From: Barthelona sp. PCE
Taxonomy: Eukaryota
Assembly (NCBI GenBank): GCA_040285745.1
Contig: JAUFOR010000001.1
Coordinates: forward strand, 806,001-870,000
Length of the DNA stretch: 64,000 nt
Direction: 5' to 3'
The translations under genes were made by a program, and so were the position numbers. This document shows positions 8,763 to 54,573 of the stretch, one piece after another. Position 1 is the first letter of the stretch; the number at the start of each line of letters is the position of its first letter. Under the pieces are notes generated by a model. That model made no database searches, was not told where the DNA came from, and saw only the letters and a program-made list of their open reading frames with translations.

Positions 8763-9122
8763 CCTAGAACGGTGTCAATGAAACGAAATCAAATGTACAA
8801 AGTGTAAAAAGTAAAGGAAAGCTTAAAGAAAGCCAAGATAAATTTGAAAACGAGACAAGTATCTTCTGCATATACGCGGTTGGTATATGTGGAAGCAATA
8901 TTATACATAGACTCAGTAAAAGGGTACTAAGTTTACACATCTTAAAAAAGAAAAGAATAAATTCACCCAAATACCTGCTTGTATACTGTTTGTATAATCA
9001 TCTGTTAATTGCATAAAAAGGGTTTGTAAACCCATAAAACACCCATAACGTTTTTAAATCAGACGCTAAAGCTAGACATATTTGTTCTACAATTTCTCCC
9101 CTTTTCACCATTTTTTTCGATT

Positions 9123-10043
9123 TTGCTTGAACTTAGCGAAACACTCAGGCGTAAAGAGAAGAATCGCCTTGTTGATCATGCTCTATCTACATTTCAAAGT
9201 TTTCTTCTTAGAAATCCACCAACAAAAAAGCCTTATCGTTATGTTTTAAACTTTTCATTCCTTGCGTTTGTGGTAGTTTACCTGAGTAGATTCTATTTTG
9301 TAGGTTCTAATGCGTATTCTGTTGTACCAATTGGTTCAGAATGGACTTCTAGCACACTACCAACCTTAAATCTACTTTTTCTTTTAAGTACAACATACCA
9401 GTACTTCTCTTACAAATCCCTATCACGTTTTTCTACAACCGTTTCTGCAACATTTTGTGCAGTTCTAATAGTTTCATTATGCACGTATATCGTTCAACTT
9501 TATGACAGTATCCAGTGTTTTCTTCTCTTTTACATCATCATACATGTGCTTTTACAGTTGGATTCAGTATGTTTTTTATTACATTGGAGTTATATAACCA
9601 GAAAAAAAGTTTCAACAAGAAAAGAACGAATATTATTAGCAAGACCCATGTGGTTAAAATTTCTTTTAGCTTTTATTTTAATTTTTATGGGTCTCTTCAT
9701 GGTTCTTGTTTTGTTGAGGGTTAATAACACTAATCAAATGTGTTTAGCCTTAACATACTTCGAAGGAGTCGAACTAGTACCAAAGATGCAGGTATTTGAA
9801 AGAATCAACATTGCTAACAGGGATGAAATTGTGATGCCATGGGGTATGTCTTTGTATACAGAAAATGGTATTGATTTTAATGTTACAGTACCAAACACAA
9901 TAGATTTTGATCATACGGCATTCCGTTCCATCTTTAAGTTGGAGCCATTTTATTGTGAAGCAATTTATTTTGAAAAACTTCAGTCACCCAATAATTATAT
10001 AAAAGCAAAGATGCTGCAGGTATGTCGAGGTCGTGGTTGTTAA
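9123..10043 (+). CDS. Hypothetical multi-pass membrane protein; start uncertain (no early in-frame ATG)
   Basis: 306-codon ORF with about 5 hydrophobic segments; opens with TTG. Confidence 0.5.
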   Translation: MLELSETLRRKEKNRLVDHALSTFQSFLLRNPPTKKPYRYVLNFSFLAFVVVYLSRFYFVGSNAYSVVPIGSEWTSSTLPTLNLLFLLSTTYQYFSYKSLSRFSTTVSATFCAVLIVSLCTYIVQLYDSIQCFLLFYIIIHVLLQLDSVCFLLHWSYITRKKVSTRKERILLARPMWLKFLLAFILIFMGLFMVLVLLRVNNTNQMCLALTYFEGVELVPKMQVFERINIANRDEIVMPWGMSLYTENGIDFNVTVPNTIDFDHTAFRSIFKLEPFYCEAIYFEKLQSPNNYIKAKMLQVCRGRGC

Positions 10044-13288: not shown

Positions 13289-16200
13289 ATGCATTTGCTA
13301 TTAAAGCATAAATGGATACTTTTGATAATTTTCATGACTCTGGTCACGTGTATCCGAGTTGAAGATTATCTCCCTGAGCAATATAGCGACTTTTTTGGGG
13401 AAAGCGAAGATTTTCATATTTATACACGTGTATTTCAAACAGTGAGGGGCTTATCAATTGTCACTGGGCGCTTTTACAAACCATCTACCACATACACACA
13501 AAGTATTCAGCCTTCATTTGTCATATCTACTGGGTGTTCTGTTCAACCCAAAGCCATAACATGTAGCACACATCATCAGCGCCAGCTGACAGATATGAGT
13601 GCCCCAGCAGATGGCTCGCTAATAGGTGGAGCGCTATGGGCCACAACATACATGAAGGGTATAAAACAGTTTTTAACAATTAACGTAGCTTTTGTTAGCA
13701 GCTCAGATCTTATTCAAATACAAGTGGATTTCAATTGTCACACATTTAAGTTTCTTGAAGAGGAAGTATCAAAGATAGAAAAAGTTTTTACAAAATTTTT
13801 TGGTTGTATTGAAGATCACTGTTTAGCAATGATATCTGACACATATGAACACAGTGTTTTTTTGGGTAGAACAACAAGCTTAAATTGTGATAGTCAGTTA
13901 GAAAATATTTTGGCACGTCATACACCAATTGGTATGCATTATATCCAAGATGACTGGAATAATTATATATATCTTCAATTTGAAGACCTCACAAAGAAAT
14001 GTGTTAGATATAATGCAAAGATTTTTCAAAGCGAACAGTCTGATGAGATATGTTATCATCCTCATATTGACCTCTCAGCAAACTATCAGTATTATTACAG
14101 TCCTCTATTACCTGAACACCCCAATCTTGACGACTATTTTATATCTATTGGTAAAGAAATTAGAGTATTTAGAAAAGAATTATTATGTCCAGGAGGTTAT
14201 AAGCAGGTTAGCATTTTGAATTCCAAAACTCAAGGTATTTACGTGTGTTATGTTGGCAGTGTATTATATATTGAATCACCAGTTATATTACCAAACACAA
14301 CAGTTTTTTTCGCCAACACAATTATGTGTGCTTCACGAAAATCCGAAAATGGACTAATTTTGAAACAGATGCGTGGAAGAGTATTTGTTTCAAAAAAAAC
14401 ATACTTTAATATAACGGCTGACATCAGCATGGAACTGCTGCATATGTATGAGGGTGATTTTCGAGCTATTGGTCTTTCCATTCGAAGTGAACAGTTCTAT
14501 ATGATTGACACTGATTTCACAGTGAAAGACACGCAACTGAACATAGGATACGGTGTTTTTCGATACACTCCCGTTGAAAATACTACAATTATTGTTCAAA
14601 ACTCCCTAACAATACATGGATGTTCTTTAAGCTCATGTGACATTGTAATTCTTCCATTTGCTCGTCTATTTTCTGTAGAAAACGAAAAATTGTGGACAAC
14701 ACTTACTCTCATGAACGCAGCCAGTTTATATGGTGATATTGAAGTTGTGAGTGCCTTAATTGGTCGTTATTCATATATTGATACAGTTCTAAACTGCGAG
14801 TTATGTGTAATTGATGAACTTACGACTACAATATCACATGAAGTTGATTCAATTTCAAAAACTGGATTTGTTGACGAATCGCGAATTAATCAGAAACTAA
14901 TATCAGATGATGCGTGCACCAGTGAAGAATTCCGCATAAAGCAGGAGGATAAAATGGATTATGTGTATGATGACGATACTGCCACACTTTCTGTGGATGG
15001 CTTGCAGTTTTCTCCAGCAGATATGCCATTCCAACTTCCACAAGATGAAACAACACCAAGCATCGGTAGCATGAGCAGCAACAACGGATCAACCATTATT
15101 CTTATGAATGAATTAATTAGTGAACCTGTTCTGCTGGAGGCCAAGATCGTTCGTATCGCTGACTCGGAATTCTTGGATACCATAACAGTGATAGGACATT
15201 CTTTTTTCGAAGGGGTAGTTTTCCATGATGAAGTAACCATTCATGGTGATGTATATATAGAGGGGAAAGGGGAACAGAAAAAAAAAAAATATATAGAAGT
15301 TCCTGTTTCAGATGTCCTGTTAACAGTTGTGAACGGTAGTTTATGGACAGGGGACATGATAAATGTGTCCCTCACGCTACTTGGTGACACAGTAATCTAT
15401 GGAGAAGATGACGGTGTTGAGCTTTTTGAATCAAGAATCTTGTGCTCTGGTATCTGTCATATATACAATGTTCATTTTGGGTTGGATACAGTAATTGAGG
15501 TTTCAAAAAATGCATCACTTACCATAGATAGTAGCTGCTCTGCAGATCAACCGGTTCCTCTTTGGCTAAGTGACAGCGCACAGTTCTCTTCTCAATCTAA
15601 CCTATTCTTCAGTGTTCAACACGTTGGTTCTTCTGTTGACCTAATCGACAATAAGTTATATGGAAATTGGAGTACTAGTCATGGCAGAACAGTTGTTCAT
15701 ATGCCAAACAAGGAATTTGAAACGATGTCTACTTTAACAACCGAGCTTGAGGATAATGTGTTCTATAACATGAAATTGAGCTATTTAGAAGTATCATATC
15801 CAATAAGTCTACATAATTTAACGGTTGATGTACTGGTTGTGAATGGTTGTGATATCAATCTTTTTGATTGCAATATTCGGGAATTGAGGGTGATTAGATC
15901 AAGCCATATAGTAACATATGGAACATGCATCATAGGTAAATTTAATTTTACAAGCGACACGGTAACATTTAAAGGCGGAGGGGATAACCCTACAATACAT
16001 TTTGGAACTGTAATTTTTAGTTCAGCTGTGGATATGAAAATGTCAAGCTATTATCTGTTAACCTTTGAAATGATTACTACATTCAGAACATTCAAATTTT
16101 TCAGTAACTTTATTGAATTTAGAACAGTAGATTTACAAAACAATGCGTTTTTTGAAATTTTTGGTATCATCCGTAGATGGGATCTATTAAAGGGCAACGG

Positions 16201-30828: not shown

Positions 30829-32513
30829 ATGCCCGCTGGTTTATTAGCCGAAAAGAGTCCGGAGGAGCAGTACAATGAGTTAGACCAACGCTACCAATTG
30901 CTAGGTATGAATTTTGTGGAGGTAACCTCTTTTTTCGAAATTGAGCACTTTTTTAACGCGTTTGACGGCCCACGTGCCGCCAACACGTACCCCACAGATA
31001 CGCATGATAACACTTACATTTAGAAGCCGATAGAAAAGCGTATTATGAAACTTCCACAGCAATCTTAAAGGCAAACGAGAAGCTCATTCGTCAACTTAAG
31101 CAGACAAACAAGCAGCTCGGAGGATCATTGCTTGAGAAGAAGAAGTCTCGAGGCAGCGCTGAATCACGCGAAGAAGCGCTCGATTCTCAGATTAGCCGTG
31201 CTAGTGATAATCTATATCGCCAAAAGTCAAAGGTCGATCAGTTAAAACATCATAAGGCTGAATTAAAGAAGCTTATTAACGAGAAGAGGTCTGACCTGGC
31301 ATTAATTCAAAGACAAACACAACAGAACACCGAGAATGGTGAGGTTAATCCACTTAACGACCGCCTGCGCAAGCTCGAGACAGAACTCGACAGCGTTATT
31401 CTGAAATTGAACGATTGTAGACAGCTTTTCAGTACCTATAAGGCCATTTTTAACAAGCTTCAAGAGGAGCGCCTCACGTACGAGAACTCCACAGAGAAGC
31501 TAGAGGGTCTTGTCAAGACTAAGGAGATCGAGATGGATGAATTGCAGTTGATGCACTCTGGAGCAATCTTTGCAAAGGAAAATGCTCACAAGGAGTTGGT
31601 AAACTTCATAGAACAAGCCAACGTGGAGCGGGAGCAGCGTAACGCCATGCTTTCATCACGTAGGCAGATGGTTGAGAAGCGTATGCAGATCACTCAAAAG
31701 ATGGAGTTACGAGAGAAATTACGTCGCGACAAGGAAAAGACTGCCAAAAACTCTGATGAAATGGACGAGCTTGACATTGCACTCGCAGGTGTTGAGGGAC
31801 AGAGCAATAACGACTCATTGATGAAGATTGATAGCTTCGAAGAGGGTTTCCGTAAGATCAAGGAGGCTACAGGTGTCTCTGAAGTGAACGAGATCATTGA
31901 GAAGTTCCTTTCTCAGGATGAAACCACGATTCACCTTAACAAACTTATTGAAAAAGCCAAGGAGAAGTTGGAGAATCTCAAATCCGAATATGAACGATTA
32001 CGCACAAGGGCTGACCGTCTTCGCTTTGCCGATTCAGGTGTTGCCGCTGAGCGTGCCCAGATCTCAGAACTGCAGCAGAAATTGTCAGAAACAAACTCCA
32101 CTGTTGATCAGACCAAGACTGTGCTTAAAACGTTGGAGCAAACCACAGTCACTGTTCGTTCTGTTATCTCATCGTTGCGCTCACGTGCATCAACTATTGC
32201 GTCAAATATGTCACTGCCACCACCGTCTGACTCTCATCCCATTGTTGATATTGCTTCACTCGTTGTTAAGGTATCTTCATCCATTGGACAAAAGACGGTT
32301 GCTGCTCAGGAAGACCTGTCAGAGATCACAATGGCTCTGCAGGAGGAGGATAGCGAAGAGGAAGAGGATAGCGAGGAAGAGGAAGACTATGAAGTTGAGA
32401 AGATCCTTGATCGACAGACACTGAAGAAGCAAGCCCAAGATATTCTTAGTAGAAACCAAGGTGCCGGTGAGAAGGGTGCTGTCTCACATGGTATGCGCTC
32501 TAGTGATATGTAA
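30829..32513 (+). CDS. CCDC151: Outer dynein arm docking complex protein CCDC151/ODAD3-like; exons 30829-30904 and 31024-32513 (521 aa)
   Basis: Splicing gives LDQRYQLLEADRKAYYETS, like the CCDC151 LEGDRKAFxExS motif; also FRKIKEATGVSEVNEIIEKFLSQ; long coiled coil. Confidence 0.8.
30905..31023 (+). other. Spliceosomal intron of the CCDC151-like gene (119 nt, phase 1)
   Basis: AG|GTATGA...ACTTACATTTAG|; splicing restores the frame and conserved motif. Confidence 0.88.
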
Positions 32514-34238: not shown

Positions 34239-35556
34239 TTAAGCAGAGGGAGCGCCAACAGCGTAGACACTTCCGAGGAAGCTGGCATCAGCCTGAACGA
34301 TGAAGTTGGAAGTGGAGATGTTTCCAGCACTGTAGATGGGGTACATGGTGTAGTCACCGCTAGCGTAGGACTCACCCATCTCAGAGGTCTTGGAACCGTA
34401 ACCGGATCTGGTGGTCTTGAGGGTCTTCTTGGTCTTGACGGCACCGGAGGCGGTGGTCTTCCAGGAAGTAACGAGGGCACCAGTGGTGGTCTCAAGGCTT
34501 AGAAGGGAGTTGGCAGGGGTGGCGGAGAAGCCGAAAACCTGGGAACCGAAAGTGGTCTTGGAGTAAGCCTTGGTGGGGCTGGCGGCCATACCGGAAACAT
34601 CGAGATCCTTGAAGACGACGGAAGTACCATCGTTGTCAATGTTATCGAACATCATATCGTCACCCTTGAAGGTGTTCTTCTCGACATCAATGTGAAGGTA
34701 GGTGGTGGCGAGACCAGTAACTTCACCGTTGTTGTTGCCAGAGAAAGCATCGAAGAAAGACTTACCGTTGACGTGGAAGAGGTCAAGGACACGGGAAGAA
34801 GTTAACTGAAGTTCGAGACCGAGGACGGTACAGTCGGTGTAGATATCCTGAGTAGAATCGGTACCAGTGAAGGTAAGGACGTTAGTGACGGAAGCACCGT
34901 GGAAAGACTTGGTAGTGGTGGTGGTAGTGAGGAGTTCAGCGAGGGTGCTGTTCTTGGTAGACTTGACATACATCTTGTATCGGTTGGTGGTACCAACAGT
35001 GACCTTGACATCAACGGCGTTACCATCGAGCCAGATACCGTTAACAGTATTATCAAGAGCAGTCCAGGAAGGGGTGTTAATAGTCTTAGCATTCTGACAC
35101 TGAAGGATCTTGCTGGAAGAACCAACGAAGACAATAATAAGGATGATGACAATAATACAACAACAACAGCCGCAAGCAGAACCCTTGGCCTTCTTGGATT
35201 GCTTGAAACGACCCCAGTAAGCTTGTTGGCCACCCATAGGCTGCATGGGCTGAGCCATGGGCTGTTGACCCATAGGAGCGCCGTAGCCGGGTTGAGGCTG
35301 AGCCATCATTTGAGGAGCGGGCTGCATCATACCCATTTGGGGGTTTCCGTATCCAGGTTGAGCATAACCTTGGTTAGTAGGTTGTCCGTACCTAAATATT
35401 AGAATTAAACGTCTAGATTGTTTCAAAATAGAACGCAAACAACAATATATTCAAATAAAAAACAAAAATATTACAACTGCTCAATTGAACAATTGTAACA
35501 TCACATCCTTTGTTGTTTATGATGTTGCGCGACTATCATTGACGAAAAACATACAT
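34239..35556 (-). CDS. Type II membrane protein: G/Q/P/M-rich N-terminus, Cys cluster plus TM, Ser/Thr-rich ectodomain; exons 35556-35555 (AT) and 35391-34239
   Basis: YGQPTNQGYAQPGYG..., ACGCCCCIIVIILIIVFV; strong codon bias. An ATG start is available through AT|G splicing. Confidence 0.75.
35392..35554 (-). other. Spliceosomal intron (163 nt) interrupting the start codon
   Basis: ...ctaAT|GTATGT...TCTAATATTTAG|G TAC GGA CAA. Confidence 0.75.
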
Positions 35557-35944
35557 TAGTAAAGATAAATAAGTAAGAAAAAGAAAAGCAAAATGGTCAA
35601 GTTTGGATAGAATTTCCAATGCACTTTGATCGATAAAAGTATAGTTCAGAGCTGATGCGTGCATAGATTTTGTCAAAATCGTTTAAACCAGAAATGTCTG
35701 ATTTCTTTTTCCCAAATTATTTGGAAATGTGATTTAACAGATGGTAAAGCAGGGAAATGTGCAGATATGTCTATATTGCAAACGATGCGTCTCTATAGTA
35801 TTATCAATGCATATTGGATTGAGTGTTTTGTTGCTTATCTTTTATTGAGTTAATTTTAACAATAACTTTTCGTAACATAAAGCATATCGTTGTTTTCATA
35901 AGAAATTTCATAATACAACAGAGGTAATTCATGAGAAACTCTCG

Positions 35945-39446: not shown

Positions 39447-39726
39447 AAAATTATGAAAAAACCCAAGAAAAACAAATGAAGAATTCATTCTATTATAGAT
39501 GTATTATTTGCTGCATTAGTATGTACTGTACATATATCTGTCATTAATGCAGTTGAAACAAGAAAAAGTTGTAAAAAAGGTTGCCTGTGCAAACACTCAA
39601 AGTTAACTCAATATTATTATCTGTTTAACAACATCATACACCTTAAAAACCGAAATACCTCGCTTTCCTGAACAATATGACATGAAATGAGTTAAAACAC
39701 AGGCTTTATCATTTACCACCTATCAA

Positions 39727-40242
39727 ATGTCATCTGCCGAACAAGGCAACGTAGTAACACCGAAAAGGGCAAAAACTTTGCAAAATAGACTGCTCAAGAG
39801 GAGACAACAACCGAGGAAAAGAGCAACAGGTTTTAATATTTCCTCATCATCACCTTCCAAAACTCAAAACACTGGATTGACCATTGACGCATCATATGCT
39901 GTTGTGAAAACAGAGCAACAACCGGAAAAACATACTAAGCCTGAAGGAATGAGTGATAATCAATGGGAACGTGAACTACGGTTGTATGAAGAAATTGACT
40001 GGACGGTAAAGCAATTGGAGCTTGGTCTAGCCAATGCGCGTGCTCACAAAGCTACTGCTGAAGAACTTTCTGAAGCACAGCGTCTAATTGCACTTTTCAC
40101 TGATCCAATGACGCCCAAGGCATCAAAAGCTCATGAACTATATCTTTTATTCGATGGAAAGGTCAGAGAACGTATGAACCAGCCCATAGAACCATCTAAA
40201 ACAAAGAAAAAGAAGAAGAAAAGGAAACGGAACAGAAGATGA
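39727..40242 (+). CDS. UPF0488/C8orf33 (DUF4615)-like protein
   Basis: EEIDWTVKQLELGL...EAQRLI..F..P..PK matches the remembered family motif. Confidence 0.6.
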   Translation: MSSAEQGNVVTPKRAKTLQNRLLKRRQQPRKRATGFNISSSSPSKTQNTGLTIDASYAVVKTEQQPEKHTKPEGMSDNQWERELRLYEEIDWTVKQLELGLANARAHKATAEELSEAQRLIALFTDPMTPKASKAHELYLLFDGKVRERMNQPIEPSKTKKKKKKRKRNRR

Positions 40243-53834: not shown

Positions 53835-54573
53835 ATGTATGCTTCACTCCACAGCCACGTGGTACTGGTAAAGAACTAACACTAAGGCAAATTTTCGTCA
53901 AGACACTCACTGGCGTATGTTTTTAGCAAATTGGATCATGAGAAGATATTCTTTGGAATTGGGACAGCTATTTTAGCTGGAAACATTGGCAACAGCTGCT
54001 GGTTAGGGGAGTACAACTCAGAATCAAGAAAGCTTGGGGTTTAGTAGTAATCTCGATGCATCTTCGTTTTTGTGTCACTTGGAAGCCCCAAACACTTTGC
54101 AAAGGTATAACGTGGGGTCTCCAATATCCAAAAGTCTGTGTACAGTTGTGTCCATCCATTTTTTATTTTTTCTCGACGTACAATGATTTTCGCTTTATTC
54201 TAACACCTAGAAGACCATTGCCATCACTTGTGAGCAGAATGAGAGCATCACTTCTGTTAAGCAAAAGATTTCTGCCAAGGAAGGTATTCCTGCCGATCAG
54301 CAGCGTCTCATCTACTCTGGTAAGCAGCTCGATGAGGGCCGCACCCTTGCCGATTACGGTATTCAGAAGGAGGCTACTCTCCATCTCGTCCTTAGACTGA
54401 GAGGTGGTGCTAACGATATTCTTCCCGCTTTGGAAGCTCTTGCTGCCAAGTACAAGTGGCACAAGAAGATTTGCCGTCGTTGTTACTCTCGCAATCCATT
54501 AAACGCCACTCGTTGTCGCAAGAAGAAGTGCAGATGCCCCGACCTTCGTTTGAAGAAGATCCCCGCTGCTTAA
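53835..54573 (+). CDS. UBA52: Ubiquitin-ribosomal protein eL40 fusion; exons 53835-53836 (AT), 53887-53914, 54211-54573 (130 aa)
   Basis: Missed by ORF track. Spliced product [13 protein letters not shown]...[52 protein letters not shown]...LRLKK. Confidence 0.95.
53837..53886 (+). other. Intron 1 of Ub-eL40 (50 nt), splitting the start codon
   Basis: caaAT|GTATGC...ACTAACACTAAG|G CAA ATT TTC GTC AAG. Confidence 0.88.
53915..54210 (+). other. Intron 2 of Ub-eL40 (296 nt)
   Basis: GGC|GTATGT...TCTAACACCTAG|AAG ACC ATT joins TLTG to KTI. Confidence 0.93.
54034..54097 (+). ncRNA. Candidate intron-encoded H/ACA-like guide RNA hairpin
   Basis: Stem TTGGGGTTT/AAGCCCCAA, internal loop, short upper stem, then ACA at 54092-54094. 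Confidence 0.4.

Follow-up and report, generated by a model that had tools for sequence, protein, structure and literature searches.

The 64-kb stretch of DNA analyzed here (the window) comes from the nuclear genome of Barthelona sp. PCE, an anaerobic, free-living metamonad whose genome (10.2 Mb in 8 contigs, BUSCO 63.7%) was annotated with GeneMark-ET, AUGUSTUS and PASA under the guidance of RNA sequencing (RNA-seq) data (PMC11316075). Our subject is a gene on its minus strand, deposited as PCE1_004848, and the 163-nt intron near its 5′ end. This intron is almost certainly real, and it probably divides the start codon of the gene, with A and T supplied by exon 1 and G by exon 2 (AT/G, the slash marking a splice junction here and below). 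We found no description of Barthelona introns in the literature; the main text of the genome paper uses the word “intron” once, and its supplements may hold intron statistics (PMC11316075).

The intron of the PCE1_004848 gene

Read along the minus strand, the leader of the gene ends …ctttactaAT (the AT at 35556-35555), the intron (35554..35392) opens with GTATGT and closes with TCTAATATTTAG, and exon 2 begins with the G at 35391 followed by TAC GGA CAA. The ends of the intron are GTATGTTTTT at the 5′ side and TTCTAATATTTAG at the 3′ side (GTATGTTTTT…GTTTAATTCTAATATTTAG). Joining AT to G produces a frame of 1155 nt, or 384 codons, that begins MYGQPTNQGYAQPGYGNPQMG… and has no internal stop. The unspliced RNA reads ATG TAT GTT TTT CGT CAA TGA, that is, MYVFRQ and a stop, just as the initial annotation of this locus had read it. 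The stop-to-stop frame includes 20 open codons ahead of the acceptor, none of which is ATG.

The coordinates, strand and length that had been given for an AT/G intron hold exactly, and the same junction is found in the deposited, RNA-seq-guided gene model. The 383 residues translated from beyond the acceptor are 100% identical to KAL0239157.1 (“hypothetical protein PCE1_004848 [Barthelona sp. PCE]”), and this 420-residue protein spans the junction as MHASALNYTFIDQSALEILSKLDHFAFLFLTYLSLLM/YGQPTNQ… (…TYLSLLM/YGQPT…), with a methionine at the junction itself. Because the residues across the slash arise only if 35555 is joined to 35391, the deposited model uses the same intron. It differs from a model with a split ATG solely in its start, which is placed at an in-frame ATG (35664) 36 codons upstream.

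The signals at the ends of the intron exceed chance. The 12-nt acceptor block TCTAAYAYYTAG occurs three times in the window versus 0.06 expected, a count reached in none of 100 shuffles, and all three copies are the 3′ ends of introns that were defined independently by reading frame. The donor word GTATGTTTTT has five copies versus 0.41 expected, of which just two are verified donors, those of the PCE1_004848 intron and of intron 2 of the ubiquitin-eL40 gene. The donor is GTATGN in six of the seven introns verified in the window and GCATGT in the seventh, and YTNAY stands 3-5 nt ahead of YAG in every one of them. To judge from these sequence signals, the PCE1_004848 intron is a U2-type GT-AG spliceosomal intron in the style of an intron-poor metamonad. 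A perfect donor-like word also occurs within exon 2 (ATGTATGT at 34966-34973 (-), encoding …K-M-Y-V-K…) and is evidently unused, so GTATGT by itself is not enough to mark a splice site here.

The intron folds as one long closed hairpin with a stability that none of 200 shuffled sequences attained (z-score -3.55), and the fold leaves some 12 + 31 nt single-stranded (about 43 nt), near the lengths of the short introns in the window (41-59 nt). Folding of the long introns is mixed, however: the z-score is marginal for that of the ODAD1-like gene (-1.97) and amounts to nothing for ubiquitin intron 2 (-0.22). No Rfam family matched the window at its gathering threshold, and the PCE1_004848 intron gave sub-threshold hairpin matches alone.

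Could the element instead not be productively spliced, with transcription beginning inside the “intron” and translation at ATG 35336, yielding a protein 19 residues shorter? There is indeed an in-frame ATG at that place, 19 codons past the acceptor. Even so, we consider this highly improbable, because the deposited RNA-seq-guided model uses the junction, the 18 codons ahead of the downstream methionine continue the PQ/GY repeat of the protein, in which the two QPGYG copies show synonymous differences only, exactly this stretch is bounded by consensus donor and acceptor blocks, and the fold resembles those of other structured metamonad introns.

The encoded protein is laid out as a 66-residue tail rich in P, Q, G, Y and M, a Lys-rich KKAKGSACGCCCC, a Cys-rich hydrophobic transmembrane helix and a 292-residue Thr/Ser-rich C-terminal domain. 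QPGYG occurs twice in the tail, the copies being distinguished by nothing more than synonymous changes at three third positions. Pfam offered no family at E up to 1 apart from a chance match to OrfA, and hence no match to DUF4097/“toastrack” (PF13349) at its threshold, and a single-sequence AlphaFold model was unusable (predicted local distance difference test, pLDDT, 34.5). The search for homologs returned one bacterial low-complexity match and one weak architectural relative, P0123 (529 aa; metagenome contig L001, 85-1671 (+)). In P0123 we noted a PQ/GY-rich tail, KKKK, a Cys-rich transmembrane helix and a large ectodomain; its gene has no intron at the start. P0123 also matches PF13349 weakly (E 0.11) which, with an ESM Atlas value of 0.86, provides leads only to a DUF4097-like beta-repeat domain in the PCE1_004848 protein. 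From their shared layout, the two proteins may belong to a wider family of protist surface proteins.

The position of the start codon

The clearest case of a divided start codon in the window is the ubiquitin-eL40 gene (53835-54573 (+)). Its leader, which at 77.5% pyrimidine is like that of PCE1_004848, ends …cttgcaaAT and is followed by GTATGC…ACTAACACTAAG and then by G-CAA-ATT-TTC-GTC-AAG-ACA-CTC-ACT-GGC. A second intron is also required to encode the protein, exon 3 matching the Pfam ubiquitin family only from position 9 of 72 and then Ribosomal_L40e. Joining AT to G restores the beginning of the protein. With an in-frame TAA standing four codons ahead of this ATG, the gene is left with no alternative start, and it cannot be modelled unless its start codon may be split. 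This unambiguous example indicates that AT/G introns exist, and would be functional, in Barthelona sp. PCE. If unspliced, its AUG opens a 14-codon open reading frame (ORF) with its stop inside the intron. No deposited protein of 66-210 aa with 100% identity to the ubiquitin-eL40 product appeared in the best 120 of 944 matches; this does not prove its absence, although the deposited proteome may lack this gene. Some gene finders are unable to place an intron inside a start codon, and the possible omission of ubiquitin-eL40 would fit such a limitation.

For PCE1_004848 the question is “Which of two in-frame ATGs starts translation?” The same intron could be internal to the coding sequence (CDS), with translation beginning at ATG 35664 as in the 420-residue model and the split codon serving as Met37. 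The initial annotation had located the AT/G intron correctly and was silent on this upstream ATG and its 36 open codons. Its placement of the intron in the start codon is still the best-supported reading, on the strength of a break in codon usage, the leader and the ubiquitin analog, but it now has to be weighed against a rival start. Our assessment is that the split ATG is probably the true start of translation, in which case the deposited PCE1_004848 probably carries 36 spurious N-terminal residues.

Codon usage breaks sharply at the intron. Exon 2 is strongly codon-biased, as had been claimed for it, with the lowest effective number of codons (Wright's Nc, 35.9) in the window. The codon adaptation index is 0.42 for its first 18 codons, 0.56 for its first 60 and 0.80 for its whole length, whereas the 36 upstream codons have an index of 0.20, the level of non-coding frames. 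In a codon model self-trained on exon 2 the upstream codons score -51 bits, versus +20 to +76 for every 36-codon window of exon 2. Seven codons (TTT, AAA, CAT, GCA, TCA, ACA and GTA) are absent among the 383 of exon 2, and many of them are present among the 36 upstream.

The stretch that directly precedes the intron is leader-like and not coding-like, which also argues against translation from 35664. A pyrimidine-rich leader had been part of the initial description, and positions -40 to -1 are in fact 82.5% C+T with a single G, a content that exceeds the value at each of the 35 other putative starts (mean 59%) and ranks within the top 0.17% when the window's 2393 ATGs are compared. Ahead of ATG 35664 the corresponding 40 nt reach 50% pyrimidine, the median of all ATGs in the window. 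A further indication comes from the distribution of ATG triplets near the 35 starts, where the last three 10-nt bins together hold 3, versus 3-12 per bin further upstream, and where the nearest upstream ATG in any frame lies at a median distance of 61 nt (108 nt for PCE1_004848). The scarcity of ATGs over the last ~30-60 nt and the 61-nt median suggest that 5′ untranslated regions (5′UTRs) are short and do not reach 35664. In P0123 the PQ/GY-rich tail begins at residue 1, so that the extension has no counterpart there. With the extension, moreover, 13 hydrophobic residues would come before the tail, which leads through its Lys-rich end into the one strong transmembrane helix, and the resulting topology appears odd. 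Nor is the choice of start by a gene finder evidence in itself, for the annotation software TOGA1 failed on the AT/G exon of vertebrate VAMP1 (10.64898/2026.06.30.735536).

Several observations weigh against a split start. First, ATG 35664 exists, is in frame and is followed by 36 open codons, as modelled in PCE1_004848. So long an open frame upstream of a start is uncommon: at least 41 open codons were found in just 2 of 30 other genes, from which we estimate that chance yields such an extension in roughly 5-10% of cases. Second, the extension scores an ambiguous -3.0 bits in a general model of coding versus intergenic codon usage, a value compatible with coding; 27 of 30 real first-36-codon windows score above this value and 28 of 30 upstream non-coding windows score below it. 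Third, the pyrimidine content of leaders does not correlate with Nc across 35 genes (rho -0.04), and a k-mer search for promoter or initiator sequences returned T-rich and TATA-like words and no positioned element. Finally, three of the arguments above have limits of their own: one of the 35 “starts” in the leader and ATG set (9178) does not lie in frame, the count of ATG depletion is to some extent circular, every ORF having been assigned its first ATG, and the similarity to P0123 is mainly low-complexity (BLASTP E 3e-4). Weighing these points against the codon break, the leader and the ATG profile, we regard initiation at 35664 as unlikely, though it is by some way the more credible of the two alternatives to a split start.

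Introns across the window

Our verification by reading frame and homology yielded seven introns in five genes, two of them at AT/G, which is the same count that the initial annotation had reported (Table 1). None of the seven lies beyond the first 150 nt of coding sequence. Six of the seven are held by four of the five genes with the lowest Nc (Fisher p 4e-4), and the two most codon-biased genes are the two AT/G genes (Nc 36.9 for ubiquitin-eL40).

Table 1. Features of the PCE1_004848 locus and the verified introns of the window (CDS nt: coding nucleotide after which the intron falls).
Feature	Position	Strand	Length	CDS nt	Phase	Basis
Upstream in-frame ATG, rival start	35662..35664	-				Start of deposited 420-aa model
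Pyrimidine-rich leader, taken as 5′UTR part of exon 1	35557..35596	-				82.5% C+T, one G
Proposed initiator A + T, final two bases of exon 1	35555..35556	-				Sequence; M at junction in deposited protein
PCE1_004848 intron, GT-AG spliceosomal	35392..35554	-	163 nt	2	2	Sequence, frame, same junction in PCE1_004848
5′ splice site GTATGTTTTT	35545..35554	-				10-mer identical at ubiquitin intron 2 donor; GTATG donor in 6/7 verified introns
Branch point fused to 3′ splice site, TCTAATATTTAG	35392..35403	-				Pattern 3 matches vs 0.06 expected, all at intron 3′ ends
Micro-ORF of unspliced RNA, MYVFRQ and stop	35536..35556	-				Read directly from sequence
Internal extended hairpin, intron positions 13-132	35423..35542	-				Minimum free energy -38.5 kcal/mol, z -3.55
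Exon 2: G completing ATG + 383 codons + stop	34239..35391	-				Frame, composition, lowest Nc (35.9) in window
Ubiquitin-eL40 AT / intron 1 / G	AT 53835-53836, intron 53837-53886, G 53887	+	50 nt	2	2	Frame, ubiquitin profile, upstream TAA
Ubiquitin-eL40 intron 2	53915-54210	+	296 nt	30	0	
CCT intron	11831-11773		59 nt	45	0	
CCT intron	11667-11623		45 nt	150	0	
ODAD1-like intron	30905-31023	+	119 nt	76	1	
Signal-peptide gene intron, probable GC-AG	60875-60835	-	41 nt	125	2	

Is the AT/G placement a selected, genome-wide feature of Barthelona, by which highly expressed genes assemble their AUG through splicing as a form of checkpoint? The initial annotation had suggested that start-codon introns may be systematic in this genome, through preferential retention, insertion at ATG or use as an expression checkpoint. 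Two of seven at AT/G is more than a smooth 5′ bias predicts by a rough and post hoc estimate (P ~0.003-0.02 for at least two of seven at one given site, with a per-site probability of 1/85 to 1/30), and both introns occur in the two most codon-biased genes. In addition, both unspliced RNAs keep an AUG whose frame stops within the intron, after 6 and 14 codons. Against this, the sample is tiny (one 64-kb window), the PCE1_004848 case was chosen for looking odd, and the 5′ bias is very strong by itself, with all seven introns at most 150 nt from the start. The word ATGTATGY, moreover, is not enriched in the window (7 versus 4.55 expected; 18 of 100 shuffles reach 7), and permissive scans of the window for introns of the A/, AT/ and ATG/ types yielded nothing above noise other than the two known cases. 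We therefore hold a systematic feature to be a tentative and rather doubtful proposition. The broader scenario, in which a sizeable class of the top-expressed genes of barthelonids assembles AU/G by splicing, presents a decoy ORF in its pre-mRNA so that protein comes from spliced RNA only, and, since common gene finders do not split a start codon, has been systematically mis-extended in the published proteome (as with PCE1_004848) or lost from it (as perhaps with ubiquitin-eL40), seems to us slightly less likely still.

An eighth intron at 9567-9747 (GTATGTTTTT…CTAAT…TAG; hairpin z -2.74) was considered and rejected, as its ATG (9178) does not lie in frame, ORF 9030-10040 continues across it in frame and splicing would lead to an immediate stop. 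ORF 9030-10040 (+) is itself peculiar: it has 337 codons and is membrane-protein-like, its first 205 codons include no ATG, and it contains the intron-like element 9567…TTTAG 9747. We found no matching protein of 185-590 aa for it, and the 131-aa form that would start at Met206 is absent from the collection. An upstream exon, an assembly indel or a pseudogene may account for the missing start codon.

Two further copies of GTATGTTTTT, at 14395-14404 (-) and 39926-39935 (-), are antisense inside plus-strand coding ORFs, and folding lends no support to an intron in either case (14145-14404 (-), z -1.99; 39511-39935 (-), z +0.56). The copy at 39926-39935 is followed by CTAATGCAG, which ends 22 nt before ATG 39488 of a minus-strand gene, and the element 39511-39935 (-) could be a 5′UTR intron. 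Lastly, the intron of the codon-biased signal-peptide gene (ATG 61000) runs GCATGT…TCTAACACCTAG; a 53-nt GT-AG alternative agrees less well with the consensus.

A proposed mechanism and its known counterparts

We propose that PCE1_004848, the gene with the strongest codon bias in the window, has its initiator codon interrupted in phase 2 by an ordinary U2-type intron. The donor is an extended GTATGT, branch point and 3′ splice site are fused, and a hairpin would shorten the long intron. Its lowest Nc suggests that the gene belongs to the highly expressed class. Exon 1 would consist of a short, pyrimidine-rich 5′UTR and “AU,” to which splicing would join “G-UAC-GGA…,” and the mature mRNA would then encode a 384-aa type-II membrane protein beginning MYGQPTNQ…. 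In the pre-mRNA the AUG would be made up of A, U and the first G of the intron; because the 6-codon ORF that it opens ends inside the intron, unspliced RNA could not yield the protein. We infer that transcription starts downstream of ATG 35664, so that the first AUG would be the split one. The position of the intron may reflect the usual retention of 5′-proximal introns in the highly expressed genes of an intron-poor genome, and the micro-ORF may act as a fail-safe.

If the deposited extension is spurious, its 36 residues would mislead predictions of targeting and topology for PCE1_004848. If split starts are common, the proteome completeness of newly sequenced metamonads would be underestimated, and if the rate seen in the window holds, the number of genes affected across the 10-Mb genome would be in the tens to hundreds. 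The window also shows barthelonids to share the pattern known from other metamonads, in which the donor is extended, branch point and 3′ splice site are fused and long introns are structured. Studies of intron evolution thereby gain a lineage whose introns gather at the very 5′ end of those genes with the strongest codon bias.

How do these introns compare with those already described? Introns of Giardia, Spironucleus and Trichomonas have an extended 5′ splice site and a fused branch point and 3′ splice site, and pairing within their long introns brings the ends to short-intron spacing (PMC6679479). The PCE1_004848 intron resembles them in its extended donor, its fused branch point and its ~43 unpaired nucleotides. 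It departs from these diplomonad and parabasalid introns in that the Barthelona block is TCTAAYAYYTAG and not the motif of those species, and in that one of three long verified introns folds clearly better than shuffles; the intron density of Barthelona (7 in 64 kb) also looks higher than that of Giardia.

Introns in or beside start codons have been reported in several eukaryotes. Nielsen and Wernersson described phase-0 “start codon introns” across eukaryotes, with an excess of introns at the very beginning of coding sequences, above all in highly expressed or conserved genes (PMC1626468), and metamonad examples include Rps4 of Spironucleus vortens, which has a start-codon intron (PMC6679479), and the dynein light chain gene of Giardia, with an intron at a distance of 3 nt from the start (PMC10711314). 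The phase-0 introns follow the G (ATG/), whereas those of Barthelona lie inside the codon in phase 2, and the PCE1_004848 protein, unlike the class as it is characterized in PMC1626468, is not short, lysine-rich or conserved. Vertebrate VAMP1, the gene missed by TOGA1, has a first exon that carries just the coding AT (10.64898/2026.06.30.735536), and the split is thus identical to ours, but it concerns a single conserved vertebrate gene with long introns, for which neither a connection with codon bias nor a genome-wide pattern has been put forward. In Yarrowia lipolytica, 47 genes have a first coding exon that consists of A alone (A/TG), and 42 introns with a donor immediately following the initiation codon's A, T or G have the highest splicing efficiency and expression (PMC13309789). 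Yarrowia and Barthelona are alike in being intron-poor, in their strong 5′ bias and in having introns in or directly after the initiator, and the unspliced RNAs of Yarrowia mostly meet an early stop. However, Yarrowia is a yeast with the donor GTGAGT, and its common A/TG arrangement leaves the pre-mRNA without an AUG, whereas the AT/G of Barthelona keeps one.

Start-codon introns are a rare arrangement already known from Yarrowia, VAMP1, Spironucleus and Giardia, and what is new here is their occurrence in a lineage without described introns. Somewhat distinctive, too, is the arrangement in which the G of the donor preserves an AUG in the pre-mRNA, at the head of a short ORF that ends inside the intron.

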